NCBI GenBank assembly: GCA_035331565.1
Contig: DAOLKO010000019.1
Location: forward strand, 67,343-131,342
Direction: 5' to 3'
Origin: Blastocatellia bacterium
GTDB taxonomy: Bacteria > Acidobacteriota > Blastocatellia > RBC074
Length of the DNA stretch: 64,000 nucleotides
Within the stretch, counting starts at the first letter, position 1; every line of letters begins with the position of its first letter. Positions 10,414 through 40,377 of the stretch are shown piece after piece. The translations under genes were made by a program, and so were the position numbers. Under the pieces are notes generated by a model. That model searched no databases. It saw nothing but the letters and a program-made list of their open reading frames with translations, and was not told the origin of the DNA.

Positions 10414-11694
10414 GTGAGAGTTACATCCAAGACGAACAGCCTGATTAGGCAAATTGTGCTGGTAGTTTTGCTTTCTGCACTTGGAAGCGTATTTGTCAGA
10501 GTTGTTTTCCGACACTACCTTATTCGAACAATAGCGGATCGCCGAATTGTGATGAACCGCGCGGCTGCAATGGCTGCCGTTAACAGATTGCCGCATTCGC
10601 CTCGCGCTTTGTTCCGTCTGGCGGAAGCGGAAATGGCTGAACCGGCATTCAATTCGCAATTGTCCGCAAGCGCGCAAACACACGCCAAGTTGGCGATTCA
10701 AAATTCTCCCTGGGATTATCGTCCATGGAAATTGCTGGCCGCCCTGCAGGAATCTGACGGCAGACCGGATGAGGCGGAAACGTCGCTGCTGGCCGCAGTT
10801 CGATTGACTCCTAACAATGTTGAAGTGAGATGGATGCTGGCCAATCTTTTATTAAGACAGGGAAAGCTGGATGAGTCGTTGAATGAATTCAACTTTACGA
10901 CGAAGGGCCGCCCGGAGCTTTTACCAATTGCTTTTGACCTGCTTTGGCAAGCGTCAAACGGGAAAATGGAACTGTTGAAAACTGTCGCCGGCAATGAACC
11001 TAAATCCCAATTAAGTCTCGTACAATTTTTGGCTGAGCAATCACAAATGGAGATGGCCATCAGTCTCTATCGCAGCATTGACGTGGCGGAAAAGTTGAAA
11101 TCGCCGAGCGCCGCCGCATTCATTTCCTCTCTGATTCAGACACAGCAGTTTTTGACGGCGCGCGACCTTTGGATTGAGACGGTTGGTTCTTTGACAGGAA
11201 ATCGCAGCGCCGATTTGATCTGGAACGGCGGCTTTGAAATTGATTCCCGGAAGGATTTCGATCACTTTGACTGGACGCTCGCTCCCAGTAATTACGCTAG
11301 AATCGGTTTCGATCAAAGCGTCGCCCACGGCGGCGGAAAATCGCTTAAACTGATTTTCGCCGGACGGGACACCACCAGGCTCGAAGGCGAGATTAAACAG
11401 TTGGTCGCGCTCAAACCGAACACGCGCTACCGGCTGGAATGCCAGGTCAGAACCGCTGATTTGCTGACGCCCGAAGGCCCGCGCTTGGCGCTGCTCAGCC
11501 AAAATCAGATTACGACAATTTCCGAACCCGTTGCCGCCGGCACTTCGGAATGGCGGCGATTGGCGGGCGAGTTCATTTCGCCGACGCAGCCGGCGGCGAC
11601 TTACATCACCATCGCCAGACTGCCGCGATTCAGTTATGACGATCCAACGCGCGGAACCATCTGGTTCGATGATTTCAAACTGACAGAGCTATAA
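10414..11694 (+). CDS. membrane-anchored TPR-repeat protein with C-terminal CBM_4_9-like carbohydrate-binding beta-sandwich
   Basis: N-terminal TM, then TPR-like helical repeats (WMLANLLLRQGKLDESL...). The C-terminal ~170 aa has a CBM-like pattern (IWNGGFE...GGGKSLKLIF...IWFDDFKL). It lies immediately upstream of the Wzy-like gene. Confidence 0.65.
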   Translation: MRVTSKTNSLIRQIVLVVLLSALGSVFVRVVFRHYLIRTIADRRIVMNRAAAMAAVNRLPHSPRALFRLAEAEMAEPAFNSQLSASAQTHAKLAIQNSPWDYRPWKLLAALQESDGRPDEAETSLLAAVRLTPNNVEVRWMLANLLLRQGKLDESLNEFNFTTKGRPELLPIAFDLLWQASNGKMELLKTVAGNEPKSQLSLVQFLAEQSQMEMAISLYRSIDVAEKLKSPSAAAFISSLIQTQQFLTARDLWIETVGSLTGNRSADLIWNGGFEIDSRKDFDHFDWTLAPSNYARIGFDQSVAHGGGKSLKLIFAGRDTTRLEGEIKQLVALKPNTRYRLECQVRTADLLTPEGPRLALLSQNQITTISEPVAAGTSEWRRLAGEFISPTQPAATYITIARLPRFSYDDPTRGTIWFDDFKLTEL

Positions 11695-11706
11695 CGGAGC
11701 GATTGT

Positions 11707-13116
11707 TTGGTGCCGAACAAGAATTCAACGCTGAAAAAGACAGGCGAACTTCTGAATGCGTTCATCTCCGCCGGATTGCTGCTGGCAATCGCCTTCACCG
11801 CGCTGGCTTTCGGAACTGTGGAGCCGTGGTCAATTGCGGTGTTCAACTTATTGATCCTTGTGTTGTGTTTGTTCTGGGGAGGGAAATGCCTGATCGAAGG
11901 TCGCCTGACGTTGGTCATCGCTTCCGTCGCCTGGCCGTTGATGGCGCTGATTGGCTTGGCATTTTTACAGACCATCGCGCGCGCCGACGCATCCGGCAAA
12001 TGGTTCGCCATCTCGCTGGACGTTGAAGCGACGCGTCTGACGCTGGAAACTGTCGCCGTCTTGCTGACGGCGTTGCTGCTCTTTTCCACCTTTTTTGCCG
12101 AAGCCGAACGCCTTTACTGGATGAGAAACTTTCTGGTGGTTTTCGGGCTGGCGTTGGCCGTTTTCGGGTTGATTCAAAAGTTCACCTGGAACGGAAAGTA
12201 TTACTGGCTGATCGAATCCAGCGCTCCTGCGGAAGTTCCGCTCGGCCCATTCGTCAATCGCAATCATTTCGCGGGCTATTTGGAAATGATCGCGCCGATT
12301 CCGGTGGCGTTGATTTTGTCGCGGGCGGTGCGCGGTGAGCTTTCCTTCTTTTATGGATTTGCCGCTGCTTTGATGAGCGTGGCGGTGTTCGTTTCGCTTT
12401 CACGTGGCGGAATGATTAGTTTGCTGACCGGATTGTTGTTCGTTGTCGCATTCGGCGTGAAGCCGGCGGCGGAAAGATCAGGAACTCGCAAGCTGTTTGG
12501 AATTTCCCCGCGTTTTGCCGCCGTGGTGTTGATCGTGTTGACGGTCGGTGGCGGCGTCTGGTGGGTTGCCGGAGACGCCGTGATCGAGCGCGCGCAACGC
12601 ACTGATTTAAGCGCACAGGCACGAAGCGGTGCCGGCAAGGAAACCTTCTTTCAAAGCCGTGGCTGGATTTGGCGTGATACGGCGGAAATGATACGGGAAA
12701 ACTGGCTGCTCGGAATTGGGTTGGGCGCTTACGAAACGGCCTATTTTCTTTACGGCAAACGCGACGGCAGTTTGATTGTCAGTCAGGCGCACAACGATTA
12801 TTTACAGATCATGGCTGATTGCGGCATCGTTGGTGGTGGCTTGGCGATTTGGTTCATTGCGGTTTTTTTCAGGGATTTGATGCGTGCGCTCGGTCATCGG
12901 AATGAAATGATGGCCGGGTTGGCGCTGGGTTGCGGAGCAGGCGCGGTGGCGATGCTCGTTCACAGCCTGTTTGATTTCAATTTGCAGTTGCCGTCCAACG
13001 CGTTGTTGTTTCTGGTGTTGACGGCGGTTGTTTCAAATATCGGTTCCGCCGCTGTCGGCGGCAAAGTCGGCCCGGCTCTGATGAATCGGGCGGTGCGCGC
13101 GAGCCTTGCGGCTTGA
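11707..13116 (+). CDS. O-antigen ligase / Wzy_C-family polytopic membrane protein (candidate polysaccharide polymerase or ligase)
   Basis: About 11 TM segments with a large periplasmic loop. It carries the Wzy_C-type motif AHNDYLQIMADCGIVGG and has a TTG/GTG start. Confidence 0.8.
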   Translation: MVPNKNSTLKKTGELLNAFISAGLLLAIAFTALAFGTVEPWSIAVFNLLILVLCLFWGGKCLIEGRLTLVIASVAWPLMALIGLAFLQTIARADASGKWFAISLDVEATRLTLETVAVLLTALLLFSTFFAEAERLYWMRNFLVVFGLALAVFGLIQKFTWNGKYYWLIESSAPAEVPLGPFVNRNHFAGYLEMIAPIPVALILSRAVRGELSFFYGFAAALMSVAVFVSLSRGGMISLLTGLLFVVAFGVKPAAERSGTRKLFGISPRFAAVVLIVLTVGGGVWWVAGDAVIERAQRTDLSAQARSGAGKETFFQSRGWIWRDTAEMIRENWLLGIGLGAYETAYFLYGKRDGSLIVSQAHNDYLQIMADCGIVGGGLAIWFIAVFFRDLMRALGHRNEMMAGLALGCGAGAVAMLVHSLFDFNLQLPSNALLFLVLTAVVSNIGSAAVGGKVGPALMNRAVRASLAA

Positions 13117-13147
13117 GGCGCTCAAGCAATTGATGGAGGGTCTAGTT

Positions 13148-14311
13148 GTGAAAACAAAATCTGTTGCAGCGAAGCAGTTCTTAGGACGATTGTCGGTTTG
13201 GTGTTTGTCTGTTTGCGTGTTGCTGGCGTCATCGGCGTTGGGCCAGAATCCGCCGCCGCGCACCAGCGCGCAAACTCCCGCGCGAACCACTGACACGAGT
13301 GGGGGCGAAACGACCAATCAGGTCAAACCGCGTGTCGGCCCGGATGTGATTATTTCCGCCGATGAAGATTACCAACTCGCGCCCAGCGACGTGATCGAAA
13401 TCATCATTCAGGACGCGCCGGAACTATCGGGAAACTTCCGCATAGGCGCTTCCGGCAGCATTCCCATGCCTTATCTCGGACAACAGAACGTCGCGGGCAA
13501 GACCACGGAGGAAGTTGCCAAAATCATCACGGAAGGACTGAAGGGGCGGTATTTGAAAGACCCCAAAGTTTTTGTCTCCATCACCAGATACAACAGCCGA
13601 ACATTCTTCATTCAAGGCGCGGTCAAATCGCCGGGCGTTTACGTGATTGAAGGCAAGCCGTCGCTGTTCAAGCTGATTACCATCGCCGGCGGGTTACAGG
13701 AAAAGCACGGTTCCATTGCTTACGTTGTTCGCGAAACCAAAGCTAAACCGGAAAAGATCGAGATGCGCGGTCAGACAGCGGACGGCAAGCCGGAGCAGGT
13801 GAGAACGACGCCCGTTTCCGAAGCCGTGGACAATGCCAAAGGATCGAACGCCGGCATGATCGGCGAGACGGAGTATGAACTGTTGCGCGCGCAGATCGGC
13901 GGTTTGATGAAAGGCCGCTTCGATCAAAACGTGCTGATTCAGCCGGGCGATGTCGTATACATTCCTCCGGCGGAAGTTTTTTATGTCGCCGGCGAAGTTC
14001 GCGCGCCAGGGCAGTATCAATTCAAGGAAGGCATGACATTGCGCCAGGCAATCACACTGGCGCAGGGAACTTACTTCAAAGCGAAACTGGACAAAGGCAT
14101 CATCTTTCGCGAAGACCCGTTGAGCGGGAAGTTCAATGAAATCCCGGTCAACATTGCGGAAGTGATGAAGGGCGGAGGAAAAGACGATATGCCGATTTAT
14201 CCCAACGATGTGGTGCTGGTTCCGAACAGCGCGGTCAAGGGAGTGTCGGCGGCGTTGTTAATGGCGATGGCGACGGGGCTTGCGCTGCGCATTCCCATCG
14301 GGGTGCGTTAA
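13148..14311 (+). CDS. wza: polysaccharide export outer-membrane protein Wza (Poly_export + SLBB domains)
   Basis: GTG start at 13148 preceded by GGAGGG at a 7-nt spacing; signal peptide; PES/Poly_export core (GPDVIISADEDYQLAPSDVIEIIIQD), SLBB (DVVYIPPAEVFYVAGEVRAPGQY) and a C-terminal amphipathic helix. The ORF track's start (13106) overlaps the upstream gene. Confidence 0.8.
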   Translation: MKTKSVAAKQFLGRLSVWCLSVCVLLASSALGQNPPPRTSAQTPARTTDTSGGETTNQVKPRVGPDVIISADEDYQLAPSDVIEIIIQDAPELSGNFRIGASGSIPMPYLGQQNVAGKTTEEVAKIITEGLKGRYLKDPKVFVSITRYNSRTFFIQGAVKSPGVYVIEGKPSLFKLITIAGGLQEKHGSIAYVVRETKAKPEKIEMRGQTADGKPEQVRTTPVSEAVDNAKGSNAGMIGETEYELLRAQIGGLMKGRFDQNVLIQPGDVVYIPPAEVFYVAGEVRAPGQYQFKEGMTLRQAITLAQGTYFKAKLDKGIIFREDPLSGKFNEIPVNIAEVMKGGGKDDMPIYPNDVVLVPNSAVKGVSAALLMAMATGLALRIPIGVR

Positions 14312-14382
14312 TCGTAAAACTATCAACTAATCAAGACGGCAATCAATACGGCCAACTGTGAGAGGGTAAAAACAAGGATTTT

Positions 14383-16791
14383 ATGGCAGACGAAAGAACA
14401 GAGCTTGATAAACCATTAACCCCCGAAGAATCAGCCATCATGCGCCCATTCGCCACTCCCCGTTATGGTGGATCGTATGGTTACGGATATGGCCCGGAAC
14501 AAGGACCGGGCATTCACCTGCGCGAAGTTCTGCGCATCATTCGCAAGCGAAAGTGGCTGGTAATGGCGATTGCCGCCGTGGCCACGATTTTGGTGACGGT
14601 CGAAGTTTTCCGCACGCCGTCCGTTTATCGCGCTTCCAACCGCATCGAAGTGGCCAAGGACTCGCCCGTGGTCGTGACATCCAAAGATCAGGTTATCCAA
14701 TTCGAGGATTCCGACAGCCTGAACACCAAAAAAGTGATTTTCAAAAGTCGCCCGCTGCTGGAAGACATCGTGGTGCTTTTGAAGCTGGAACAGGATCCGA
14801 AATTCATCGAAAGCATGCGGAAGAAATCCGTGACTGATGCTCTGCATGAAATCGGGGATCGTTTCTCCGGCAAAGGCGCGGACGAAGAAACCAAACAGTC
14901 AGAGGCGTTGATTGCTTCGCAAACCGTTATTCTGCAAGAGCGCACGCCGGAAGAAAGTCGCCGCCTGGCACCTTTCGTCAACATTCTGCGCAGCAAGCTG
15001 AATGTCGAGACGATGGCGGAAACGAACATTCTGGAAGTTTCCTTCGAGCATACTGACCCCGCGCTGGCCGCCGCCGTCGTCAACACCGCCGCCAAGAATT
15101 TCATTGACCGCACCTTTGAACGGCGGACTTCCAATTTTTCCAGCACCTCGGATTGGCTTGATCGTTCGACGCGCGAGCTGCGGGCGAAGGTTCAACAGGC
15201 CGAGCAGGCCGTGGCCGATTACACCAAGCGCAACGGCATCTTTTCGACCGACGGCAAAGGCAATCTGACGACGGACAAACTCTCCGGCCTACACGCCGAA
15301 GCCTTGAAGGCCGAGATGGATCGTATGCTCAAGCAGTCGCTTTACGAAGAAGTCAAAAATGGTCGCGCTGCGCAATTGCCTGAAGCCTTTTCAGACGCCA
15401 GAACCGGCACGCTCAAACAAAAGCTGGGCGAACTGGAACTGGAGCAGTCGCAGTTGAGCGTCAAATACGGCCCGGAAAATCCGCAGGTCGCCGTCATCGA
15501 ACAAAAAATCAAAGTCCTGAAAGATCAACTGAAGGACAATCAGCGGACGCTGGAAGACAAGTTGAAAGCGGATTATGACCGTTCGGTGCGCGATGAGCGC
15601 GAATTCAAAATCGCGCTGGACGCGGCGAAAGGCGAGGCCGTCCAACAAAATCAGGCGGCGATTCAATTCAGCACGCTGCAAGCCGAACTCGACACCGCGA
15701 AGGCGCTTTACGCCGATTTCCTCAACAAAACCAAGCAGGCCGATTTGCAACTGGCCGAACAGCACAACAACCTGAAGATTGTCGAAACGGCCGAAACTCC
15801 CAAATCGCCGATTGGCCCGCAGCGGTTCCGCACGATTCTGATTGGCTTGCTCGTCAGCTTGATTGCCGGAATGGGTTTGGCGTTCTTCCTCGAATATCTG
15901 GACAACACGGTCAAGAGCGTGGAGGACGTGGAGCGCGTGGCCGCGTTGCCTACGCTGGCAGTGATTCCCGCCATCTCCACCATTTCGCCGCGCGCGCTGG
16001 CGGAAAAGAAAAAGAACAAAGCGGAAGTCAGCCCCAGCACGGAACTCAGTCCGAATTTCGCTTCCGCAGGTTCGGGCGAACACGGAAAGCTGACCAAGCT
16101 GGTCACGCTAGACCAACTTTCCTCCGTGGTCGAAGCCTACCGCATGCTGCGCACTTCGGTGCTGCTGTCCGCCGCCGGTAATCCGCCGAAGGTCATTCTG
16201 TTCACCAGCGGCCAGCCGGGCGAAGGCAAAACCACCACGGCTATCAACACCGCGATTTCGCTCTCGCAGCTTGGCTCTTCCGTGTTGCTGATTGACGCGG
16301 ATTTACGCCGTCCGACCGTGCATCGCGTGTTCAAGATGGGCCAGTCTCAAGGGCTTTCGACCTTCCTCTCGCGGCAGGTGGAAATTGATCCGTTGATTCA
16401 TAAATTATGGGTTCCGAATCTGTCCGTGTTACCCTGTGGCCCGATTCCTCCCAATCCGGCTGAGTTAATCAGTTCGGAGCGAATGAAAAGTCTGTTGAAA
16501 GTGCTGTCCGAAAAATACGATCACATACTGATTGATTCGCCGCCGCTGATTAACGTCACCGATCCGGTAATTCTTTCGACGATGGTGGACGGCACGATTC
16601 TGGTCGTGCAGGCCGGACGTTCGACGCGCGACATAGTGCGCCGCGCCCGTCAGGAACTGGCCAGCGTCGGCGCGAAGATTTTCGGCGTGGTGTTGAACAA
16701 TCTCGACATCAAACGAGAAGGGTACGATTCGTACCTTTCCACCTACGGCAATTACGGTTACGCGGAACGCCGCGAAGCAGGCCGCAGGTAA
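14383..16791 (+). CDS. wzc: polysaccharide co-polymerase / tyrosine autokinase Wzc (paralog 1)
   Basis: Two TM segments flank a Wzz/GumC-like periplasmic coiled-coil domain. The cytoplasmic BY-kinase has Walker A (GQPGEGKTT), Walker A' (LLIDADLRRP), Walker B (ILIDSPPL) and a C-terminal Tyr cluster (YDSYLSTYGNYGY). Confidence 0.9.
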   Translation: MADERTELDKPLTPEESAIMRPFATPRYGGSYGYGYGPEQGPGIHLREVLRIIRKRKWLVMAIAAVATILVTVEVFRTPSVYRASNRIEVAKDSPVVVTSKDQVIQFEDSDSLNTKKVIFKSRPLLEDIVVLLKLEQDPKFIESMRKKSVTDALHEIGDRFSGKGADEETKQSEALIASQTVILQERTPEESRRLAPFVNILRSKLNVETMAETNILEVSFEHTDPALAAAVVNTAAKNFIDRTFERRTSNFSSTSDWLDRSTRELRAKVQQAEQAVADYTKRNGIFSTDGKGNLTTDKLSGLHAEALKAEMDRMLKQSLYEEVKNGRAAQLPEAFSDARTGTLKQKLGELELEQSQLSVKYGPENPQVAVIEQKIKVLKDQLKDNQRTLEDKLKADYDRSVRDEREFKIALDAAKGEAVQQNQAAIQFSTLQAELDTAKALYADFLNKTKQADLQLAEQHNNLKIVETAETPKSPIGPQRFRTILIGLLVSLIAGMGLAFFLEYLDNTVKSVEDVERVAALPTLAVIPAISTISPRALAEKKKNKAEVSPSTELSPNFASAGSGEHGKLTKLVTLDQLSSVVEAYRMLRTSVLLSAAGNPPKVILFTSGQPGEGKTTTAINTAISLSQLGSSVLLIDADLRRPTVHRVFKMGQSQGLSTFLSRQVEIDPLIHKLWVPNLSVLPCGPIPPNPAELISSERMKSLLKVLSEKYDHILIDSPPLINVTDPVILSTMVDGTILVVQAGRSTRDIVRRARQELASVGAKIFGVVLNNLDIKREGYDSYLSTYGNYGYAERREAGRR

Positions 16792-16794
16792 AAT

Positions 16795-16872
16795 ATGATG
16801 GGTGAAGATGAAGGCAGAAGGATGAAAGCGGCACAATCGCTATTTCATTCTTCATCCCTCATCTTTCATCAT
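16795..16872 (+). promoter_or_regulatory. imperfect GA-rich/CT-rich inverted repeat (GATGAAG...CTTCATC arms, ~33 nt each) between the wzc paralogs
   Basis: Left arm atgatgggtgaagatgaaggcagaaggatgaaag, loop cggcacaatcg, right arm ctatttcattcttcatccctcatctttcatcat. About 75-80% of arm positions are complementary. It starts 4 nt after the wzc-1 stop. Confidence 0.35.
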
Positions 16873-16949
16873 TTCTAAAAACTACACACAATTTCTTTGA
16901 CAATTCCGTTGCTGCGTCCCTTGCCCCGGCGCAGTTGTAAGGTTCCGTC

Positions 16950-19334
16950 ATGGCTGAAGAAAAAAATAACTCTGAACTCCCTCAATTGGCGGAAGAGGCG
17001 CTGCTGCTGCGACCGAGCGGCGTGTCCAAGCCGAATTCCTTTGAACAACTGGCTTATAACTATGGCGCGGGTGGCGCGAAAGACGGCTTCGATCCGCGCG
17101 GTTTGTGGCGCAAAATCCGCAAACGGAAATGGCTGGTGGCGGCGATTGTCCTGATTGCCACGATCATTGTTTCCATCGAATCCTTCCGCACCAAATCCCT
17201 TTACCTGGCGACCACCAAAGTCGCCATCAACAAACAAAGCACGATTGTCAGAACAGGCGATCTGGTACTTGAATCCAACGACAGCGAGCGTGTCAAAACG
17301 GAAATACTAATGCTCAGCACGCATCCGCTATTGGAAGAAGTCATCGTCCGGCTCAAGCTCGACCAGAACCCGCAATTTCTGGACATCAAAAACCGCAAGT
17401 CCGTTGTTGAAGCGGTCAAAACAATTTCAGCCAAACTCAAAGGCGAACCCAATACAGGCAATTCCATTCCGCCGCCGCTCAATCTGTCGCCGGCGCAAGA
17501 CGCTCCGCGCTCAACGGCGGAAAGCGCGCGCCTGACGCCTTACGTCGAACTGCTCAAGGAAAACCTTTTCGTTGACCAGATTCCCGAAACGCGCGCGCTG
17601 GCCATCAATTATTCCCACACCAATCCGGTCATTGCCCAAGCCGTCGCCAACGGCGTGGCGCAGGTGTTTGTGGATTTCAGCTTTCAAAACAAAATCTCTA
17701 AATATTCCAGTTCCTTCAACTGGCTGGATCGCACCACGCGCGGTTTGCGCGCGCAGATGGAACAAGCCGAACGCGCGCTGGCCGATTACAGCAGTTCGCA
17801 CAACTTCTTTTCGCCGGACGAAAAGCAAAGCCTGACGGTCAGCAAACTGGCGACGCTGTACGGACAGGTGCTGAAGGCCGAGACGGATCGCATTCTGAAA
17901 CAATCGCTTTATGAAGAAGTGCGCCGCGACCGCGTGGCGCAATTGCCTGAAGCCTTTTCCGATCCGCGCATCGTGCAGTGGCAAAACGAGATGGGTAAGC
18001 TGCAACTCAAAGCTTCGGAACTCAACTCGCGGTTCGGCCCGGAAAATCCGAAAGTTCTTGAAACACAGCAGCAGATCAAGGAACTGGACGGTCTGGTTCT
18101 GGCCAGCACCAGACAACTGGCAGAGCGGTTGAAAGCGGATTATGACCGCGCCGTGCGCGATGAAGCCTTGATTCGCGAATCACTGGAACAAGCCCGCAAC
18201 GAAGCCATACAGCAGAATCAAGCCGCGATTGAATTGAACGTACTCAAACAAAACTCCGACACGGCGCGCGCGCTTTACAACGACTTTTTGCAGAAAACCA
18301 ATCAGGCGAACATACAGGTCAATGAACAGCAGAACGATCTGAAAGTCATTGATCCGGCGCGCGTCCCGAATGCGCCCGTCGGGCCGAAGCGATTGCGCGC
18401 AATTCTGATCGCCATCTTTCTTAGTCTGGTTGCCGGCATCGGGTTGACGTTCTTGCTGGAATACCTGGACAACACGGTCAAAAACGTCGAGGACGTGGCG
18501 CGCGCCACGCAGTTGCCCACGTTGGCGCTGATTCCAGCGATGGAAGGCAACACCGTTCGCACGTTGAATAAAAAGAAAAGCATCCAAAACAAACCCGTGG
18601 CTGGACTCGCTCCGCGCAGCATGCAGACAGGCACCAACGGTCTGGCCACGCTCGACGGCATGTCTTCAGTCGTCGAAGCCTACAGAATGCTGCGCACTTC
18701 CGTGCTGCTTTCCAGCGCAGGCAATCCGCCCAAAATCATTCTCGTCACCAGCAGCCAGCCTGGCGAAGGCAAAACCACGACGGCGGTCAACACAGCCATT
18801 TCACTGACTCAACTCGGCGCGAGTGTTTTGCTGATTGACGCTGACCTGCGCCGCCCTGCGGTTCACAAAGCCTTCAAACTTTCCCACGCGCGCGGCTTGT
18901 CGAATTATCTTTCCGGCAACGCTGCGCTCAGCGATTTGATCGTTGATTTGCCGATTCCGAATCTTTCGTTGTTGGCTTGTGGCCCGATTCCGCCCAACCC
19001 GGCGGAACTGGTCAGCTCTGAACGGATGAAAGAAATGTTGCGCGTACTCAGCCAGCTTTACGATCACATCATCGTGGATTCGCCGCCGCTGATTAACGTC
19101 ACCGACCCGATCATTCTTTCCACCATCGTTGACGGCACGATTCTGGTAGTGCAGGCCAGCCGTTCGACGCGCGATATGCTGCGGCGTTCGCGGCAGGAAC
19201 TGGCCGGCGTGGGTGCGAAAGTTTTCGGTGTGGTTCTGAACAACGTGGACATCAAACGCGACGGCTACGACGAGTATTACTATTACCGTTATTACTCGAA
19301 TTACGGTCAGGATGGGAAGCAAGCCGAATCTTGA
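16950..19334 (+). CDS. wzc: polysaccharide co-polymerase / tyrosine autokinase Wzc (paralog 2)
   Basis: Same architecture as paralog 1. The kinase core is about 85% identical to paralog 1 (SSVVEAYRMLRTSVLLSSAGNPPKIILVTSSQPGEGKTTTAVNTAISL...), the periplasmic domain is diverged, and the C-terminal Tyr cluster is richer (YDEYYYYRYYSNYG). Confidence 0.9.
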   Translation: MAEEKNNSELPQLAEEALLLRPSGVSKPNSFEQLAYNYGAGGAKDGFDPRGLWRKIRKRKWLVAAIVLIATIIVSIESFRTKSLYLATTKVAINKQSTIVRTGDLVLESNDSERVKTEILMLSTHPLLEEVIVRLKLDQNPQFLDIKNRKSVVEAVKTISAKLKGEPNTGNSIPPPLNLSPAQDAPRSTAESARLTPYVELLKENLFVDQIPETRALAINYSHTNPVIAQAVANGVAQVFVDFSFQNKISKYSSSFNWLDRTTRGLRAQMEQAERALADYSSSHNFFSPDEKQSLTVSKLATLYGQVLKAETDRILKQSLYEEVRRDRVAQLPEAFSDPRIVQWQNEMGKLQLKASELNSRFGPENPKVLETQQQIKELDGLVLASTRQLAERLKADYDRAVRDEALIRESLEQARNEAIQQNQAAIELNVLKQNSDTARALYNDFLQKTNQANIQVNEQQNDLKVIDPARVPNAPVGPKRLRAILIAIFLSLVAGIGLTFLLEYLDNTVKNVEDVARATQLPTLALIPAMEGNTVRTLNKKKSIQNKPVAGLAPRSMQTGTNGLATLDGMSSVVEAYRMLRTSVLLSSAGNPPKIILVTSSQPGEGKTTTAVNTAISLTQLGASVLLIDADLRRPAVHKAFKLSHARGLSNYLSGNAALSDLIVDLPIPNLSLLACGPIPPNPAELVSSERMKEMLRVLSQLYDHIIVDSPPLINVTDPIILSTIVDGTILVVQASRSTRDMLRRSRQELAGVGAKVFGVVLNNVDIKRDGYDEYYYYRYYSNYGQDGKQAES

Positions 19335-19388
19335 GTCCGTTGTACCCGGAAGCCGCTGCATTTTGATGAGTTAAAACGAAGTGACTTA

Positions 19389-19417
19389 TTGACGGACTTT
19401 GGCGTTCGGCTTATCAT
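19389..19417 (+). promoter_or_regulatory. candidate sigma70-type promoter (TTGACG-17-TATCAT) upstream of wzx
   Basis: -35 TTGACG at 19389-19394, 17-nt spacer, -10 TATCAT at 19412-19417. It sits ~125 nt upstream of the wzx start in the 200-bp gap after wzc-2. Confidence 0.35.
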
Positions 19418-19540
19418 CCGCGCGCTTTCGCCCCAGTGCCTCTTTAATCGTGGATGTGACACCTCACTGAACGTCGCGTCTTCGCATTCGCTTCGACCCC
19501 ACAACCTACAATCGTCAATTTTATTTTTCACAAGAAAGAC

Positions 19541-21046: not shown

Positions 21047-21047
21047 A

Positions 21048-30993: not shown

Positions 30994-32877
30994 ATGTGTG
31001 GAATCGCAGGCATTGTGACGGAAAGAGGCGGCATCAACGAAGCGCGCGTGCAGCCGATGATTGACGCATTGGCGCATCGCGGGCCGGACGCCTGGGGGGC
31101 TTGGTCGGACGGCGTTTGCGCGCTGGGCCACCGTCGTTTGTCCATTATTGATTTGTCCGAAGCCGGGCGGCAGCCGATGACGACCGAAGACGGCGGCATT
31201 CAAATCAGCTTCAACGGCGAAATCTATAACTTCCAAAGTTTGCGCGCGGAGTTGGAAAGTCTGGGCCATCGCTTCCGCACGCGCACGGACACGGAAGTTA
31301 TTCTGCGCGCCTACGAACAATGGGACGTGAACTGTCTGTCCAAACTGCGCGGAATGTTCGCCTTTGGTTTATGGGATCAATGGCGACGGCGACTGTTTCT
31401 GGCGCGCGACCGCGTAGGCAAAAAACCGCTCTTTTACGGAACCTTTGCCGGGCAATTCGTCTTTGCTTCGGAGTTGCAAGGTTTGCTGGCGCACGAAGCC
31501 GTCACACGCGAAGTTTACCCGCCCGCGATTGACGCTTATCTCAGTTATGGTTACGTGCCGCCGCCGCACACGGCTTTTCGCGGCATTTTCAAATTGCCGC
31601 CCGCGCATTACTTGACGCTCGAAGTTAAACCGGAAGAGTGGCGGCAGCGCGTCGAACGGTATTGGTCGCTGGATTACGAACCAAAATTGAAACTCGACGA
31701 GCATGAGGTCGGCGAGGCTTTACGCGAAAAGCTGAGCGAGGCCGTGCGGCTGCGAATGATTGCCGATGTTCCGCTCGGCGCATTTCTGTCAGGCGGAATT
31801 GATTCCAGCATCGTCGTCGGGTTGATGGCGCAACAGTCCACACAGCCGGTCAAGACCTTCTCCATCGGTTTTAAGGAAGCCGAATACAACGAACTCGAAC
31901 ACGCGCGGCGCATTGCAGACAAATGGAACACTGAGCATCACGAATTTGTCGTCGAACCGAACGCGCTGGAAGTCATCCCCAAACTGGTGCGGCATTACGG
32001 CGAGCCATACGCGGATTCATCAGCCATTCCGACGTTTTACGTTTCGCAGTTGACGCGCGAACACGTAACCGTGGCGCTCAACGGCGACGGCGGCGACGAG
32101 AGCTTCGCCGGCTACGAACGTTATTTGGGCAATCGTCTGGCCGAACGTTTCCAGGGAATTCCCGGTACAAAGCTGGCGGCGAAAACTTTGGGGCGATTGC
32201 TGCCGGATTCAGTTGATCCCAAAGACCGCGTGCGCAACGTGCGCCGCTTTCTAAATGTGATGACGCAGCCGATGCCGCAACGTTACGCGCGCTGGCTGAC
32301 GTATTTCACCGCCGATGACAAGGCTTCGCTTTACCGCCCGGAATTTCGCGCGCAACTCAACGGTGCGGCGCGCGCGGACTGGTTGGCCGATTTGGTGGCC
32401 GAACGGCGAGAGCTTGACCCGGTGGACGCGGCGATGTCGGTGGACATTGATTCGTATCTGCCTTTCGATTTGCTGGTCAAAGTGGACATCGCGGCGATGG
32501 CCAACAGTTTGGAAGCGCGTTCGCCGCTGCTCGATCACCACGTGATGGAATTCGCCGCGCAGTTGCCGGCCTCACTCAAATTGCGCGGCAAAAATTTGAA
32601 GCACTTGCTCAAGACGGAGTTCAGCGATTTGTTGCCGCCGGAAAACGTCAACCGGCGCAAGGCAGGGTTTGCCTTGCCCGTCGGCCAATGGTTTCGCGGG
32701 CCGTTGCGCGAACTGTTGTGCGACGCGCTGTTGTCGAATGCGAAATCGCGCCCGTATTTTCAGGCTCCGCAAGTCGCGCGCTTGGTGGACGACCATCTCA
32801 ACAGCCGCGCCGATCACTCCTTTCAGCTTTGGGATTTGATGATGCTGGAGCTTTGGCACAGGGAGTTTGGTTTATGA
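30994..32877 (+). CDS. asnB: asparagine synthase (glutamine-hydrolysing), AsnB-family amidotransferase
   Basis: MCGIAGIV N-terminal nucleophile Cys2, the glutaminase domain, and the PP-loop SGGIDSS in the synthetase domain. Confidence 0.9.
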   Translation: MCGIAGIVTERGGINEARVQPMIDALAHRGPDAWGAWSDGVCALGHRRLSIIDLSEAGRQPMTTEDGGIQISFNGEIYNFQSLRAELESLGHRFRTRTDTEVILRAYEQWDVNCLSKLRGMFAFGLWDQWRRRLFLARDRVGKKPLFYGTFAGQFVFASELQGLLAHEAVTREVYPPAIDAYLSYGYVPPPHTAFRGIFKLPPAHYLTLEVKPEEWRQRVERYWSLDYEPKLKLDEHEVGEALREKLSEAVRLRMIADVPLGAFLSGGIDSSIVVGLMAQQSTQPVKTFSIGFKEAEYNELEHARRIADKWNTEHHEFVVEPNALEVIPKLVRHYGEPYADSSAIPTFYVSQLTREHVTVALNGDGGDESFAGYERYLGNRLAERFQGIPGTKLAAKTLGRLLPDSVDPKDRVRNVRRFLNVMTQPMPQRYARWLTYFTADDKASLYRPEFRAQLNGAARADWLADLVAERRELDPVDAAMSVDIDSYLPFDLLVKVDIAAMANSLEARSPLLDHHVMEFAAQLPASLKLRGKNLKHLLKTEFSDLLPPENVNRRKAGFALPVGQWFRGPLRELLCDALLSNAKSRPYFQAPQVARLVDDHLNSRADHSFQLWDLMMLELWHREFGL

Positions 32878-34160
32878 CGCCACTGGATTTGCGCCTGCGC
32901 GTCGTTCGCATCATTGATCGCCTGAACGTAGGCGGCCCGGCCAAACACGTCACCTGGCTGACCGCCGGGATGAATTCGGAAGAATTCGACACGACGTTGA
33001 TTACCGGAACCATTCCGCCGGGCGAAGGCGACATGAGTTACTTCGCGCGCGAAGCAGGCATCCGTCCGCTCATCCTCAAAGAGATGAGCCGCGAACTGAA
33101 TCCGCGCGACCTGTTCGTCATCTGGAAACTCTGGCGCGAACTGGTGCGCTTGCAACCGCACATCGTTCACACGCACAAAGCCAAAGCCGGCGCGGCGGGG
33201 CGTTTGGCCGCGACGCTTTACAAATGGCTGACGCCCGGCACGCTTTGGCTGCGTCCGCGCCAATGCCGCGTCGTTCACACCTTTCACGGCCACATCTTTC
33301 ACAACTATTACGGCGCGGCGAAAACGGCTGCGTTTGTCGCCATCGAACGCGCGCTGGCGCGCTTCTGCACGGATCGCATCATCACCATCAGCAATCAGCA
33401 GCGCCGGGAAATCAATGAGCAATTCAAAGTCGGACGCGCAGCGCAGTTTGAAGTCATCTCGCTCGGCATTGATTTCGACGAGACCAAATCCCAACGCGGG
33501 CCATTGCGCGCGCAACTAGGCATCGGCGAAGCAACGCCTTTGATCGGTGTGGTCGGGCGTTTGTGCGAAATCAAAAACCACGCCTTGTTGCTGGAAGCCG
33601 TCGCGCGCTTGAAGCAGGAAGGTTTGGATTGGCGATTGGCAGTGGTCGGCGACGGGCATTTGCGCGCGCCGCTCGAAGCTCAAGCTGCGGCGCTGGGCAT
33701 TGCGGATCGCGTGCATTTCACGGGCTTTCGTCAGGACGCCGCCGCGCTTTACGCCGAATTCGACATTGCCGCCCTGACTTCGCTCAATGAAGGCACGCCG
33801 CTGACTTTGATTGAAGCGATGAGTTGCGGCGTCCCGGCGGCATCCACCGAAGTCGGAGGCGTGGTTGATTTGCTGGGCGAACGGCGCGAACAACGCGACG
33901 GATTCACGCTTTGGGATCACGGCGTCACAGCGCCCAGCCGCGATGCGGAAAGTTACGCTCGCGGGCTCAAACTGTTGATTGAACATCCCGATTTGCGAAG
34001 GCGTATGGGCGCGCAAGCTCAAGCCTTCATCCACTCACGATTTTCCAAGCAACGTCTGATTGCCGATATGGAAAGCCTGTATCGCGATCTGACCGCTACC
34101 CGCGTACTGCCCCGGACTCACCAACCATTCCAAGCAAAACTAAAGGAAAGAACAAAATGA
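32874..34160 (+). CDS. glycosyltransferase family 4
   Basis: ATG overlaps the asnB stop (ATGA). GT-B fold with SLNEGTPLTLIEAMSCGVPAASTEVGGVVDLL. The ORF-track N-extension runs inside asnB and was rejected. Confidence 0.8.
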   Translation: MTPLDLRLRVVRIIDRLNVGGPAKHVTWLTAGMNSEEFDTTLITGTIPPGEGDMSYFAREAGIRPLILKEMSRELNPRDLFVIWKLWRELVRLQPHIVHTHKAKAGAAGRLAATLYKWLTPGTLWLRPRQCRVVHTFHGHIFHNYYGAAKTAAFVAIERALARFCTDRIITISNQQRREINEQFKVGRAAQFEVISLGIDFDETKSQRGPLRAQLGIGEATPLIGVVGRLCEIKNHALLLEAVARLKQEGLDWRLAVVGDGHLRAPLEAQAAALGIADRVHFTGFRQDAAALYAEFDIAALTSLNEGTPLTLIEAMSCGVPAASTEVGGVVDLLGERREQRDGFTLWDHGVTAPSRDAESYARGLKLLIEHPDLRRRMGAQAQAFIHSRFSKQRLIADMESLYRDLTATRVLPRTHQPFQAKLKERTK

Positions 34161-35164
34161 AAGTCTTGATTACGGGCGGAGCCGGCTTCATCGGCTCACA
34201 TTTGTCGGAACGTCACCTGCAACGCGGCGACGAGGTTTACATCATTGACGACCTTTCGACCGGTTCCATCGAAAACATCGAACACATCAAAGACCTGCCG
34301 AGTTTTCATTACCACCTGGACACGGTGACGAATCATCGTCTGGTGGCCGAACTGGTGGATTTGTGCGACGTGGTTTATCACCTGGCGGCGGCGGTCGGCG
34401 TCAAGCTGATTGTCGAAAGTCCCGTACGCACCATCGAAACAAACATTCGCGGCACGGAAGTCGTGCTGGAACACGCCGCCAAAAAACGCAAACGCATACT
34501 GATCGCTTCGACCTCCGAAGTGTACGGCAAACGCGAACAAATCCCGTTTCGTGAAAGCGACGATTTGGTGATGGGCGCGACCAACAAAGGCCGTTGGAGT
34601 TACGCCTGCTCCAAAGCGATTGATGAATTTCTGGCCATCGCATACTGGAAAGAAAAGAAAGTGCCGACGGTCATCGCGCGCCTGTTCAACACTGTCGGCC
34701 CGCGCCAAACAGGGCGTTACGGCATGGTCATTCCGAACTTCGTCCGGCAAGCGTTGCGAGGTGAAGAGATCACTGTTTACGGCGACGGTTCGCAAAGCCG
34801 CTGCTTCACGCACGTCAACGACGTGGTCGGCGCGTTGATGAAATTGATCGAACATCCACGAGCCGTCGGCGATGTTTACAACATCGGCAGCGCGCAGGAA
34901 GTCTCCATTCTGCAATTGGCCGAACGCATCAAATACCTGACGGATTCCGATTCGCCCATCACTTTCCTGCCTTATGAAAAAGCCTACGAAGAAGGCTTCG
35001 AAGATATGCTGCGCCGCGTCCCTGACATCACGAAAATCAGCTCTTTGGTAGGGTATCAGCCGACATTTAATTTGGACGAAATCTTGATGAGTGTGGTAGA
35101 TTACGAACGTTCCAAACAATTGAATCGGTATGGTTCTCCCGCCCCAATGGAGTTCCAATCGTAA
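34157..35164 (+). CDS. NAD-dependent epimerase/dehydratase (SDR; UDP-sugar 4-epimerase-like)
   Basis: MKVLITGGAGFIGSHL Rossmann motif and the catalytic YxxxK (YACSKAIDE). Confidence 0.9.
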   Translation: MKVLITGGAGFIGSHLSERHLQRGDEVYIIDDLSTGSIENIEHIKDLPSFHYHLDTVTNHRLVAELVDLCDVVYHLAAAVGVKLIVESPVRTIETNIRGTEVVLEHAAKKRKRILIASTSEVYGKREQIPFRESDDLVMGATNKGRWSYACSKAIDEFLAIAYWKEKKVPTVIARLFNTVGPRQTGRYGMVIPNFVRQALRGEEITVYGDGSQSRCFTHVNDVVGALMKLIEHPRAVGDVYNIGSAQEVSILQLAERIKYLTDSDSPITFLPYEKAYEEGFEDMLRRVPDITKISSLVGYQPTFNLDEILMSVVDYERSKQLNRYGSPAPMEFQS

Positions 35165-35318
35165 CCTTTCACTGGTGCCTCACAGCTTCAACCGGCAGAA
35201 GCTTCATCGAAAAATCAAAACACAAAAATTCCATGCAGCGATGGATGACTGGTTCGTCCATCGCAACTGAATCAACCTGAAGCACGCTCTTTCCGGCCCC
35301 CCCAAAGGAAAGAACTAT

Positions 35319-37070
35319 ATGAAGCCTGCCGCAAGTGTAATCATTACCGCGGTGCTGAGCTTGATCTTTACATTTCTTGTTCGATCCGGCGCGCACCGAT
35401 TAGGAGTAGTCGCTGCTCCACGCAAAGACCGTTGGCATCAGAAGCCGACGGCTTTGATGGGCGGCATAGCGATTTATTTCTCCTTCCTTCTCGGCTCTTT
35501 TCTTTTCGCCCGTTCAATAAGTTGTTTCTACCCCATCCTGATTGCCGGCACGATTCTGTTCATCACCGGCGTGGTGGACGATCTGATTCAATTGAAGCCT
35601 TACATCAAACTGGTCATGCAGATTGTGGCTTCGTCCGTGATCGTCTATTGCGGCTTGTATCTGCATTGGACGGGCATTGAAGCGGCAGATTCCCTCATCA
35701 CAGTGTTCTGGCTTGTCGGCCTGACCAACGCCGTCAATCTGCTGGACAATATGGACGGTCTGGCCGGAGGCATTTCCGTCATCGCCAGTTTCTTTCTGGC
35801 GATCACCTTCTTGCTGAACGGGCAAATGGCCGAAGCCGTTCTGCCGTTGGTGCTGGCGGGCGCAGTGTTGGGTTTTCTGTATTTCAATTTCAATCCGGCT
35901 TCGATCTTTATGGGTGATTGCGGCTCGATGTTGCTGGGTTTGTCGTTGGGCGGAATCGCTTTGCTGAACGACATGGGACGGACGCGCAATCTGGCTGCGG
36001 TTTTTTCGACGCCGGTACTGATTCTGCTGATTCCCATCTTCGACACCTGCGTCGTCACCGTCACGCGCAAACTATCCGGTCGCCCTGTTTCGCAGGGCGG
36101 ACGCGACCACACGTCTCATCGTTTGGTGGCGCTGGGCATGTCCGAACGCCGCGCCGTGCTGACACTCTATTTGCTGGCGGCAGTTTCTGGAACGCTGGCC
36201 TTGCTCGTCCGGCAAATGCACATCGGCGCGAATCTGTTGCTGACTTCAGGCTTCGCGTTGACCATTCTGTTCATCGGTTTGTACCTGGGCAAAGTGCGCG
36301 TTCACGAAGGCGGCAACCCCGAAAGCAATACGCTGGTGAACGTCTTCGCCAGCCTGTCTCCGCGCCGTCGCATTTTTGAAATCCTGCTCGACCTTTGTTT
36401 GATAGTGCTGGCTTATTACGGCGCTTACCTGTTGCGCTTTGAACACGGCCTGCCGGACGAACAGTTGAAGGTTTTCATTCGCACGCTGCCGGTGGTGATT
36501 GCAGTTCAGATTTTATTGTTTCTGTTTGGCGGAGTTTATCGCGGCATCTGGCGATACGCGGGCGTGGATGATCTGGTCGTCATCGCCAAATCAGTGTTCA
36601 TAGGCGCGCTCATCAGCGGCGTAGGCGTGATGGCGCTCCACGGATTTCACGGCCCTTCGCGCGCGGTCTTTATTCTGGACGCCTTGCTGCTCTTGTTGTT
36701 TGTCGGAGCCAGCCGCCTGTCGTTCCGTTTGCTGGGGGCATTGTTCGTCGGCAAGCAAACTGCGCCTCCGAATTCAACGCCCGTCTTGATTTACGGCGCG
36801 GGCGACGGCGGAGAAATTCTGATTCGCGAATTGCTCAACAATCCCGCGCATCGCTATCAACCCGTCGGTTTCATTGACGACGACCGAAACAAAACCGGCC
36901 TGCTCATTCGCGGCTATCGCATCTTCAGCCGCGAAGATCTGCCCGAACTCATCAGCGAACACGGCGTCAGCGAAGTGCTTGTTTCCAGCTTCAAAGTCCC
37001 TGAAAGCAAGATCAACGATTTGCGCGGACTGGGCATCGGCTTCAAACGCCTGCGAATTCAACTTGAATAG
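35319..37070 (+). CDS. polyprenyl-phosphate HexNAc-1-phosphate transferase (WecA/WbpL/MraY-like) fused to a C-terminal CoA-binding-like Rossmann domain
   Basis: N-terminal ~330 aa are 10-11 TM with VNLLDNMDGLAGG and DxxD motifs, as in the MraY/WecA family. The C-terminal ~200 aa (PVLIYGAGDGGEILIRELLNN...YQPVGFIDDD) resemble the N-terminal domain of WbaP/PglF-type enzymes. Confidence 0.8.
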   Translation: MKPAASVIITAVLSLIFTFLVRSGAHRLGVVAAPRKDRWHQKPTALMGGIAIYFSFLLGSFLFARSISCFYPILIAGTILFITGVVDDLIQLKPYIKLVMQIVASSVIVYCGLYLHWTGIEAADSLITVFWLVGLTNAVNLLDNMDGLAGGISVIASFFLAITFLLNGQMAEAVLPLVLAGAVLGFLYFNFNPASIFMGDCGSMLLGLSLGGIALLNDMGRTRNLAAVFSTPVLILLIPIFDTCVVTVTRKLSGRPVSQGGRDHTSHRLVALGMSERRAVLTLYLLAAVSGTLALLVRQMHIGANLLLTSGFALTILFIGLYLGKVRVHEGGNPESNTLVNVFASLSPRRRIFEILLDLCLIVLAYYGAYLLRFEHGLPDEQLKVFIRTLPVVIAVQILLFLFGGVYRGIWRYAGVDDLVVIAKSVFIGALISGVGVMALHGFHGPSRAVFILDALLLLLFVGASRLSFRLLGALFVGKQTAPPNSTPVLIYGAGDGGEILIRELLNNPAHRYQPVGFIDDDRNKTGLLIRGYRIFSREDLPELISEHGVSEVLVSSFKVPESKINDLRGLGIGFKRLRIQLE

Positions 37071-37182
37071 CGAGTTGTTGCCCGGCCCGCCGATTCGCCC
37101 TCAGCCGCGAAACTCTTGCCCAATCAACTTTCCGCATAGAGAATGCGCCCGCTTTTCAATCTTCAACCTGCGGGAGCATCTC

Positions 37183-40100: not shown

Positions 40101-40377
40101 TGTGTTTCCGAACGCGACTTTCGTCCCCGGCCACGAACCGCGCCGCGTGACGACCAAAAGCACCAATCAGATTTACACCGGCGTCATCAACGACTTTGAA
40201 TCCACGCGCGACGCCATAGTGTTGATGTCCGGCCCGAACGACAAAATCCGCATCCCGCGCGAAGACATCGCTTCGATCAAACCATCGCAAGTCTCGCTGA
40301 TGCCCGAAGGCTTCGCCGCGCAACTGACGCAAAAAGAATTGACCGATTTGCTGGCCTTTCTGAAAGCGCAGAAGTAA
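37183..40377 (+). CDS. large membrane-anchored dehydrogenase-like protein: sorbosone/glucose-dehydrogenase-like beta-propeller + HEAT repeats + C-terminal c-type cytochrome (PVC-type heme-binding domain)
   Basis: N-terminal TM; a propeller region (LFVTESSGK...DGWMYLTHG); multiple HEAT/PBS-lyase repeats (VRCAAVFALGRIANPEAA, VRIAAAHVAG, ARRNAATALGQIGD); and a C-terminal CSSCH haem-binding motif. The ORF-track 103-aa N-extension was rejected. Confidence 0.8.
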   Translation: MTSTLIRRIAPALVTLAAVVLLCILGVKRWRAYQAKQPRQTLAIEGGTISVPAGFTIQKVAAEDLTQYPMLAALDDRGRLFVTESSGKNVSGKKMAEIPECRISVLEDTDGDGRYDRTKVFADKLSLPMGVLWRGQSLYVASPPDFVRLDDRDNDGVSERREVILTGWNVLNTASLHGPFFGPDGWMYLTHGRHGYKIQTKEGELLEGLASRIWRSRADGTGLERVVGGGFDNPVELIFTPAGEMIGTMTYFTDPQAGQRDALLHYVEGGVYPKPHPAIAEFKRTGDLMPVMTKFARIAPSGLMQYRGKAFGEDFQGNLFTAQFNPHRVQRHKLFREGATFRTEDSDFITSTDPDFHPTDILEDADGSLILLETGGWYVDACPLSKIHKGEKRGAIYRIRKTDAPKIEDPRGDKLKLETLPPADLAKLLPKLLEDARPAVRDRSLELLVAGGEKSVAALIQIREQSQQPEVRCAAVFALGRIANPEAAKAVRAALNDADFQVRIAAAHVAGLNKDAEAVERLSRMVKDDEAPARRNAATALGQIGDRRAVAALLAAAANAKDRFIEHAVIYSLIQLKDQQALIAALKAPAIGTRKAALIALDQSNDSLITAGVVAPFLGEGEAELRKAALWVFGHHAEKPEWAAAVHSFLRGRLRAEKFDGNEADSVKDALLAFVADTQVQALIAESLDNETFGSERQLFLLEVIERCSLKQLPDAWQTIIARRLKASQNAANKNADAQVRARTIAVIRSRRIATLDDELRRIAADSAEAVDLRLTALSALITRAPKLDSPAYQFLLETIAPERDPALRLSAAQSLGQSELDREQLLQLAKDHLPKSDSLTLLTLLDAFRNARDEETGRALVAALSQPEVNLESIGGKRLEQLFQNFPDSIRASSKSLLNRFAEEEAAQLKKLRELEPLLTAGGDAGAGRNVFFGKRAACSSCHTIGLEGGRVGPDLTSIGAIRSGHDILEAIVFPNATFVPGHEPRRVTTKSTNQIYTGVINDFESTRDAIVLMSGPNDKIRIPREDIASIKPSQVSLMPEGFAAQLTQKELTDLLAFLKAQK

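Follow-up and report, generated by a model that had tools for sequence, protein, structure and literature searches.

The 64,000-nucleotide stretch analysed here (the window), from the contig DAOLKO010000019.1 of an uncultured soil acidobacterium (class Blastocatellia), probably holds a locus for a surface polysaccharide, either an exopolysaccharide (EPS) or a capsule, at 10414-37070. The families of its encoded proteins point to a Wzx/Wzy-dependent assembly with export by Wza and Wzc. Within these ~26.7 kb lie 18-19 co-directional polysaccharide genes. The locus is of an ordinary, recognizable kind: its backbone is common to relatives, and a small decoration cassette differs. Genes were assigned by Pfam and NCBIfam scans of the open reading frames (ORFs) of the window. 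The scans confirmed most of the families named in an original prediction made from the sequence letters, namely a WecA-type primer, Wzx, Wza, two Wzc proteins and a family 2 glycosyltransferase (GT2), together with a carbamoyltransferase, two methyltransferases and AsnB. They added a gene that the prediction had left unmentioned, a short-chain dehydrogenase/reductase (SDR) resembling UDP-glucuronate decarboxylase (UXS), at 34157-35164. The assembly and export proteins are listed first.

10414..11694, + strand: membrane-anchored tetratricopeptide-repeat (TPR) protein, 426 aa; Pfam TPR_14/TPR_19; one N-terminal transmembrane (TM) helix, residues 14-32
11707..13116, + strand: polytopic membrane protein of the Wzy_C family; PF04932 74.9 bits against a cut-off of 31.7; multiple TM segments
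13133..14311 (ORF open from 13106), + strand: Wza-type outer-membrane polysaccharide export protein (OPX); Poly_export 74.2 bits plus two SLBB domains
14383..16791, + strand: Wzc1, a class 2a polysaccharide co-polymerase (PCP-2a) chain-length regulator fused to a bacterial tyrosine kinase (BY-kinase); Wzz, GNVR and AAA_31 domains; TIGR01007 192.8 bits against a cut-off of 108
16950..19334, + strand: Wzc2, a second PCP-2a/BY-kinase; TIGR01007 204.7 bits against a cut-off of 108; kinase motifs
19553..21046 (ORF open from 19541), + strand: Wzx flippase of the MOP family; PF01943 56.8 bits against a cut-off of 28.2; multiple TM segments

For comparison, related loci (L-numbers below) were gathered via homologues of the primer, of a GT-C-fold membrane protein described below, of AsnB and of Wza; they come from Blastocatellia metagenome-assembled genomes (MAGs). 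The TPR gene, first of what we call the left module, encodes a protein with faint similarity to PrsT (29.7 bits against a cut-off of 312), and full-length homologues with 47-49% identity stand at the same position in L093, L094, L096 and L097. The Wzy_C protein is syntenic in L093-L097 (55-58% identity), and L091 has a Wzy_C gene at the same position. Wza resembles the EpsE/pepcterm_export models, with scores below their cut-offs, and its homologues in relatives share 53-72% identity. The orthologue of Wzx in L090 is 69% identical. The original prediction had called the Wzy_C protein a Wzy-like ligase; the family holds, and from its domain we read the protein as a candidate repeat-unit polymerase, or a ligase.

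Both Wzc proteins are full-length. Wzc1 presents the Walker A, A' and B motifs and 5 Tyr among its last 30 residues, and Wzc2 has 8 Tyr in the same span and a Ser in place of the first Gly of Walker A. With 52% identity to each other, they appear to be old paralogues retained in tandem, and their paralogy was the only result of a repeat search, which gave no regulatory repeats common to the intergenic gaps. The pair is kept as positional orthologues in L091 and L097, and L093 and L096 carry the Wzc1 type alone, a distribution that suggests either a hetero-oligomer or two modules.

Priming and growth of the repeat unit would fall to the following proteins.

21048..22190, + strand: family 4 glycosyltransferase GT4 (a); Glycos_transf_1 137 bits plus Glyco_transf_4
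22986..23912, + strand: GT2 of the soluble type; PF00535 115.8 bits; DXD motifs; C-terminus free of a hydrophobic tail or TM helices
23909..25171, + strand: GT4 (b); GT4 Pfam domains; member of a conserved GT4-GT-C-GT4 triad
25183..26517, + strand: GT-C-fold polytopic membrane glycosyltransferase-like protein, 444 aa, assigned by homology and a structure model
26554..27642, + strand: GT4 (c); Glyco_trans_1_4 plus Glycos_transf_1; its orthologues follow the GT-C gene in relatives
32874..34160, + strand: GT4 (d); Glycos_transf_1 120.5 bits; an stp2-like score of 162.8 bits, under the cut-off; belongs to the conserved core on the right
34157..35164, + strand: extended SDR, nearest to UDP-glucuronate decarboxylases (UXS/ArnA-type); matches to structures of human UXS1 (E 1e-56, 195 bits)
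35319..37070, + strand: priming phosphoglycosyltransferase (PGT) of the WecA/MraY superfamily, 584 aa; PF00953 121.8 bits (cut-off 27) plus PF13727 35 bits

The primer carries the catalytic DD and NxxNxxDxxDG motifs and is a fusion: an 11-TM WecA domain (residues 1-320) is followed by four TM segments and PF13727 (residues ~340-583). Its C-terminal ~230 residues resemble the N-terminus of WbaP, as positions 1-205 of TIGR03025 align to residues 356-566, and PDB entry 3nkl matches residues 488-556. The module of four TM segments plus PF13727 is known from the N-terminus of large monotopic PGTs of the WbaP type and from PglF-like dehydratases, where it is associated with dimerization and nucleotide sensing. 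More than 100 Blastocatellia metagenome proteins, annotated merely as WecA or hypothetical, share this ~584-aa fusion at 60-94% identity, and our literature search found no description of a WecA plus PF13727 architecture.

Five GT4 enzymes had been counted originally. Four are GT4 (those starting at 21048, 23909, 26554 and 32874), and the fifth presumed glycosyltransferase, at 25183-26517, appears to be a GT-C-type membrane protein. This protein itself has no Pfam or NCBIfam match. It shares 29% identity (E 2e-40) with its PMT_2-positive positional equivalent in L007, and hundreds of homologues are 55-93% identical to it, some of them named 'glycosyltransferase family 39' or ArnT-like; PMT_2 matches only some of these. 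The residues D67-E68-D69 (25 homologues) and APFPW (322-326) are invariant. In the AlphaFold2 model (pLDDT 78, pTM 0.81) the top Foldseek matches are STT3, AglB, ArnT, ALG9 and PMT, all GT-C enzymes, with probability 1.0 and TM ~0.4 but weak E-values of 1e-3 to 0.05. Orthologues of GT4 (b) lie directly upstream of the GT-C gene in L007, L019 and L090-L092 (39-70% identity), and those of GT4 (d) follow AsnB in seven related loci (48-72% identity). We also considered the GT2 as an ArnC/GtrB-type polyprenyl-phosphate sugar synthase serving the GT-C protein. This role is unsupported, as the enzyme lacks C-terminal TM helices and is not beside the GT-C gene in L007 and L091. The SDR scores 166.6 bits with NF008872 (cut-off 294), its orthologues in relatives (71-85% identity) adjoin the primer gene, and its family points to a UDP-glucuronic acid (UDP-GlcA)-derived chemistry.

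Modification of the glycan would depend on a further set of genes, among which one ORF is doubtful.

22171..22986, + strand: class I S-adenosylmethionine (SAM)-dependent methyltransferase 1; Methyltransf_11 80.9 bits; 271 aa in L001
27687..29399, + strand: O-carbamoyltransferase of the NodU/TobZ/CmcH family; Carbam_trans_N (PF02543) 197.7 bits and Carbam_trans_C (PF16861) 233.7 bits
29409..29984, + strand: doubtful ORF, 191 aa; no Pfam or NCBIfam family match
29893..30933 (alternative start 30052), + strand: class I SAM methyltransferase 2, its N-terminus a Trm112-like zinc ribbon; Methyltransf_11 85.8 bits and a weak Trm112p match
30994..32877, + strand: glutamine-dependent amidotransferase of the AsnB type; best model TIGR03108, 665.3 bits against a cut-off of 816.9; Asn_synthase 345 bits

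The carbamoyltransferase is full length, with both the Kae1-like N-terminal and the YrdC-like C-terminal domains; residues 5-565 align to GdmN and TobZ, and the matches to the GdmN, TobZ and NovN structures have E-values of 1e-96 to 1e-89. Its orthologues in L009 and L010 are 80-81% identical. Methyltransferase 1 has an orthologue in L090 (74% identity), and methyltransferase 2 belongs to the variable cassette, with orthologues in L010 and L090 (68-78% identity). The ORF at 29409-29984 is doubtful as a gene because it has no homologue beyond near-identical strains and an atypical GC3 of 0.58, compared with 0.65-0.72 in the neighbouring genes. In AsnB the Cys2 nucleophile is intact (N-terminus MCGIAG), and the SGGIDS PP-loop stands at residue 266. 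The TIGR03108 family includes WbpS, WbqG and Porphyromonas gingivalis PGN_1234; uronamides are no longer formed once PGN_1234 is lost, and WbqG is reported to be needed for this conversion in E. coli O121 (PMC7468200). Since members of the family have been shown experimentally to make uronamides, conversion of a uronic acid to a uronamide is a reasonable prediction for the enzyme of the window, and the earlier suggestion of an amidated polymer thus has a precedent at the family level (WbpS, WbqG and PGN_1234; PMC7468200). The particular decorations (uronamide, O-carbamoyl, methyl and a UDP-GlcA-derived sugar) are extrapolated from known families and would not surprise a specialist.

The nearest models of AsnB and of several neighbours invite a different reading, an XrtA/PEP-CTERM-type EPS, in which the polymer would partner exosortase-processed PEP-CTERM proteins encoded elsewhere and the AsnB-like enzyme, the stp-like GT4 and the TPR protein would serve protein-glycan coupling. 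XrtA models are indeed the best NCBIfam matches of several genes (TIGR03108, stp2/stp3, pepcterm_export, pepcterm_TyrKin/ChnLen and PrsT), and the literature describes such loci with asparagine-synthase paralogues. All scores with XrtA models nevertheless stay below cut-off, that of AsnB with TIGR03108 included (665.3 vs 816.9); none of the scanned large ORFs of the 64-kb window matches an exosortase; and a regular-expression scan for PEP-CTERM tails over all window ORFs of at least 80 aa returned one spurious 81-aa match only. TIGR03108-family enzymes, moreover, are also present in ordinary O-antigen loci that have no exosortase (PMC7468200). We consider this reading quite unlikely, and filing the locus as an XrtA system was rejected, the window having neither an exosortase nor PEP-CTERM tails.

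A lipopolysaccharide O-antigen (or K-LPS) locus would use the same Wzy_C protein in another manner, as a WaaL-type ligase onto lipid A-core, with polymerization left to the GT-C or another protein. The primer is of the WecA type, which is typical of O-antigen and enterobacterial common antigen pathways, and Pfam describes PF04932 as 'O-Antigen ligase'. Wza together with Wzc BY-kinases is a hallmark of capsule and EPS export, whereas O-antigen assembly uses a Wzz that has no kinase domain; the locus has Wza and two full-length Wzc BY-kinases. The WbpS and WbqG relatives of AsnB are O-antigen enzymes (PMC7468200). On balance we regard an O-antigen locus as very improbable and retain the EPS or capsule reading.

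The synteny check proposed with the original prediction gave a conserved skeleton with a variable cassette across the Blastocatellia loci. From the left, the skeleton runs from a BNR protein, an RND adaptor and a 206-aa secreted protein through TPR, Wzy_C, Wza, Wzc1 and Wzc2 to a variable set of glycosyltransferases, Wzx and methyltransferases. It continues with GT4-GT-C-GT4, the variable cassette, AsnB, GT4, the UXS-like SDR and the WecA fusion. It was found in L007, L009, L010, L019, L090, L091 and L092, and its left flank in L093-L097. The cassette between GT4 (c) and AsnB holds the carbamoyltransferase and one methyltransferase in the window; an SDR, a hexapeptide acyltransferase, a methyltransferase, a formyltransferase and a deacetylase in L090; and a hexapeptide acyltransferase, a transglutaminase-like protein and DUF218 in L091. 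In L007 it is empty. Fixed ends with a variable middle are the architecture familiar from K-/O-antigen-type loci.

Homologues of AsnB, searched as an anchor across a genome collection, number more than 600 relatives in many phyla. In at least 4 of 83 loci, many of these loci being truncated contigs, an AsnB homologue and a carbamoyltransferase are no more than 10 kb apart; the pairing is uncommon, not unique. Residue-for-residue copies of the AsnB of the window are present in three MAG assemblies at NCBI and several assemblies at ENA, and for the primer, the GT-C protein and AsnB the homologues that bear a name are from Blastocatellia or Acidobacteriota. A Planctomycetes/PVC origin, which the DUF7133 and Roc-COR genes of the flanks had suggested, was dropped in view of these homologues and exact copies. 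The combination of decoration enzymes had been called rare. The low count of the pairing agrees with this, but the skeleton is shared, the cassette is swappable and two relatives carry the carbamoyltransferase at 80-81% identity. Of the undescribed chemistry that had been proposed, one part stands, as no characterized polysaccharide was found for the class, but the gene set itself is not exotic. Our literature search found no polysaccharide locus or polymer structure described for Blastocatellia, and none specific for an acidobacterial locus of such type. What was termed a rare chemistry is better put as a strain-variable decoration cassette in a locus conserved across the class. Downstream of the primer gene in L009 (11912-14512) and L007 (13609-17784) we observed clusters resembling those for lasso peptides and other peptides made on ribosomes and modified after translation (RiPPs), with PqqD, a transglutaminase-core protease, a second asparagine-synthase-type cyclase and NTP_transf_5. 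Because of these clusters, a second AsnB homologue near the primer loci need not be glycan-related.

The organization of transcription departs from what had been proposed, a single operon with overlapping or short junctions. The run of + strand ORFs is unbroken across 10414-40377, as had been stated, and extends both upstream (HlyD at 7986 and the 9621 gene) and downstream (40595). Once gene starts are refined against the upstream stops, genes overlap by ATGA at 23909, 32874 and 34157 and by TGATG at 22986, with a spacer of 1 nt at 21048; but four junctions are longer, Wza to Wzc1 (71 nt), Wzc1 to Wzc2 (158 nt), Wzc2 to wzx (206-218 nt) and SDR to primer (154 nt). Two elements lie in these gaps.

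16795..16872, + strand: stable stem-loop; minimum free energy -33.1 kcal/mol, z = -5.1, 0 of 200 shuffles folding as well
19389..19417, + strand: sigma-70-like promoter match TTGACG-17-TATCAT, 10/12, within the 206-218-nt gap before wzx

The stem-loop starts right after the Wzc1 stop and has no clear U-tract, and a TTGACA hexamer is present further downstream in the same gap; the element may be a terminator, an attenuator or an mRNA-stabilizing structure at a module boundary. The promoter match is the sole one on the + strand in 9-41 kb. L093 and L096 share the left flank and the order TPR-Wzy_C-Wza-Wzc1, followed by a short unrelated set (a GT4-like gene, a GNAT and a DegT aminotransferase); these contigs are short and have no Wzc2-to-WecA block. 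The single operon is therefore unlikely: because of the long gaps, the stem-loop, the promoter-like site and the relatives with the left module alone, at least two transcription units are favoured, probably a left assembly/export module (TPR to Wzc1) and a right synthesis module (Wzc2 to WecA).

The same boundary could mark two juxtaposed systems, the left one serving general assembly and export and the right one forming an independent glycan pathway that has a co-polymerase to itself and uses the GT-C protein as polymerase or transferase. L093 and L096 carry the left module at the same chromosomal site without the right-hand block, the stem-loop and the 158-nt gap separate Wzc1 from Wzc2, the two Wzc paralogues are old at 52% identity, and the L090 locus starts inside a Wzc2 orthologue (85% identity) that heads its synthesis block. 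The join of the two modules, however, is also present in L091 and L097, where Wzc1 and Wzc2 are adjacent as they are in the window. The right module lacks its own OPX, and in the window the left module lacks its own primer and glycosyltransferases. As for L093 and L096, whose contigs are short, the right module could sit elsewhere in those genomes. We judge two separate systems unlikely, although not negligibly so, and treat the two modules as parts of one Wzx/Wzy-dependent locus.

Established knowledge of the enzyme families allows the steps of such a pathway to be drawn. The WecA-type enzyme would transfer a sugar-1-phosphate, probably of an N-acetylhexosamine, onto undecaprenyl phosphate, and the four GT4 enzymes and the GT2 would build a repeat unit of up to ~six sugars. 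The UXS-like SDR would supply a UDP-GlcA-derived pentose or keto-sugar, the WbpS-like amidotransferase would turn a uronic acid carboxylate into an amide, and the carbamoyltransferase and the two methyltransferases would decorate hydroxyl or amino groups. The repeat unit would then be flipped by Wzx and polymerized by the Wzy_C protein, with the GT-C protein most likely adding a periplasmic branch from a polyprenyl-phosphate sugar. Finally, chain length and export would be controlled by both Wzc paralogues together with Wza, perhaps joined by the TPR protein. We infer the identities of the sugars, the positions modified and which of the Wzy_C and GT-C proteins acts as the polymerase.

Several observations weigh against this account. 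The source is a MAG, and the locus is known from its sequence alone. The Wzy_C domain is common to polymerases, WaaL ligases and O-oligosaccharyltransferases alike, and the NCBIfam models gave no match for this protein. AsnB and the GT4 enzymes score below the NCBIfam equivalog cut-offs. The E-values of the GT-C fold matches are weak, and the role assigned to that protein from its model is a guess. A Wzb-type phosphatase (LMW-PTP or PHP domain) is missing among the scanned ORFs of the window, though one may be encoded elsewhere, and the window has no UDP-sugar dehydrogenase to make the uronic acid. Consensus scans for promoters and terminators gave total counts at or below shuffled expectation, and the window holds no information on the acceptor.

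A bolder version would make the locus a distinct Wzx/Wzy variant across Blastocatellia. In it a WecA-type primer would have captured a WbaP-type module for nucleotide sensing and dimerization, the Wzc paralogues would form a hetero-oligomeric co-polymerase/kinase, and a minimal GT-C protein, not Wzy_C, would polymerize or transfer en bloc. The product would be a class-wide glycan, here a carbamoylated, methylated uronamide polymer unseen in any bacterium. We hold this version to be highly doubtful.

As to the extent of the locus, the left edge given originally is sound, with a gap of 172 nt between the 9621 gene and the 10414 gene. The right edge had been set at 40377, for a locus of ~30 kb, and this does not hold: the locus ends at 37070, because the ORF at 37183-40377 encodes a PVC-type haem-binding protein and is missing there in relatives, where other genes adjoin the primer gene. 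The two genes that border the locus are as follows.

9621-10241, + strand: secreted protein, 206 aa; signal peptide, RGVRCVP motif, Ser/Thr-rich linker, Gly/Ala-rich hydrophobic C-terminal segment and short polar tail
37183-40377 (real start ~37183), + strand: PVC-type haem-binding protein; DUF7133, HEAT repeats and a C-terminal cytochrome c; TIGR02604 178 bits against a cut-off of 122

The 206-aa protein has no Pfam or NCBIfam match and stands directly upstream of the TPR gene in L093, L094, L096 and L097 (61-73% identity); it could act with the locus as a partner anchored at the cell surface, or the synteny may simply be shared. The flanks are unrelated housekeeping and signalling genes: FKBP, BNR and the RND adaptor upstream, a leucine-rich-repeat (LRR)-Roc-COR GTPase and Ser/Thr kinases downstream. 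The GTPase (~1035 aa, 40628-43735) is co-directional with the locus, as is the haem-binding gene, and neither is related to it. At the far left, a long minus-strand ORF (1-3450) that continues beyond the start of the window codes for the N-terminal portion of an SMC chromosome-segregation protein, and several of the + strand ORFs listed at 1418-3625 probably just shadow it. Rfam gave no match anywhere in the window, a tRNA search found none and no compositional break was seen. As the Rfam and tRNA scans were empty, the window bears no signature of a riboswitch, an RNA element or a tRNA-flanked island.

Blastocatellia are abundant soil and crust bacteria. The present analysis gives a map of what is apparently their main surface-glycan locus, with fixed ends and a swappable cassette, analogous to K/O loci. 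Such a map could help to type MAGs in a 'serotype-like' manner and to select a cultured relative for chemical work. Uronamide, O-carbamoyl and methyl groups and a UDP-GlcA-derived sugar are its testable predictions.

Among the known systems close to the locus are those of the group-1-capsule/colanic-acid type (E. coli cps/wca; Myxococcus EPS). Like them, it encodes a primer PGT, a MOP flippase, a Wzy_C protein, a PCP-2a BY-kinase whose tail is rich in Tyr, an OPX carrying Poly_export and SLBB domains and several GT4/GT2 enzymes, and its genes are closely packed and co-directional. By their domains, the defining features of a Wzx/Wzy system with Wza/Wzc export appear to be present, except for a Wzb in the locus, and the Wzy_C domain does not separate a polymerase from a ligase. 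The locus differs from the E. coli and Myxococcus loci in that it has no Wzb and two tandem Wzc paralogues, its primer is a polytopic PGT (polyPGT) of the WecA type that bears a WbaP-type accessory module, and its conserved members include a putative GT-C membrane glycosyltransferase and a TPR membrane protein. With the XrtA/PEP-CTERM EPS loci (Haft's eps/Prs; zooglan-type) it has in common an AsnB nearest to TIGR03108, stp-like GT4 enzymes, EpsE/EpsF/EpsG-like export proteins and a TPR protein, while the 64-kb window lacks an exosortase, PEP-CTERM proteins, PrsK/PrsR and EpsL. The AsnB enzyme is like WbpS (P. aeruginosa O6), WbqG (E. coli O121) and PGN_1234 in its best model, TIGR03108, and in its intact nucleophile and PP-loop; this likeness rests on a family model, and the locus of the window differs in having no uronic-acid-forming dehydrogenase. 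The C-terminal module of the primer, finally, aligns to the models of WbaP/WcaJ and to PDB entry 3nkl, a likeness to the large monotopic PGTs (WbaP/WcaJ) and PglF-like dehydratases. In those proteins it precedes a monotopic PGT or a dehydratase, whereas here it comes after a polytopic domain of the WecA/MraY fold, which belongs to the other PGT superfamily.

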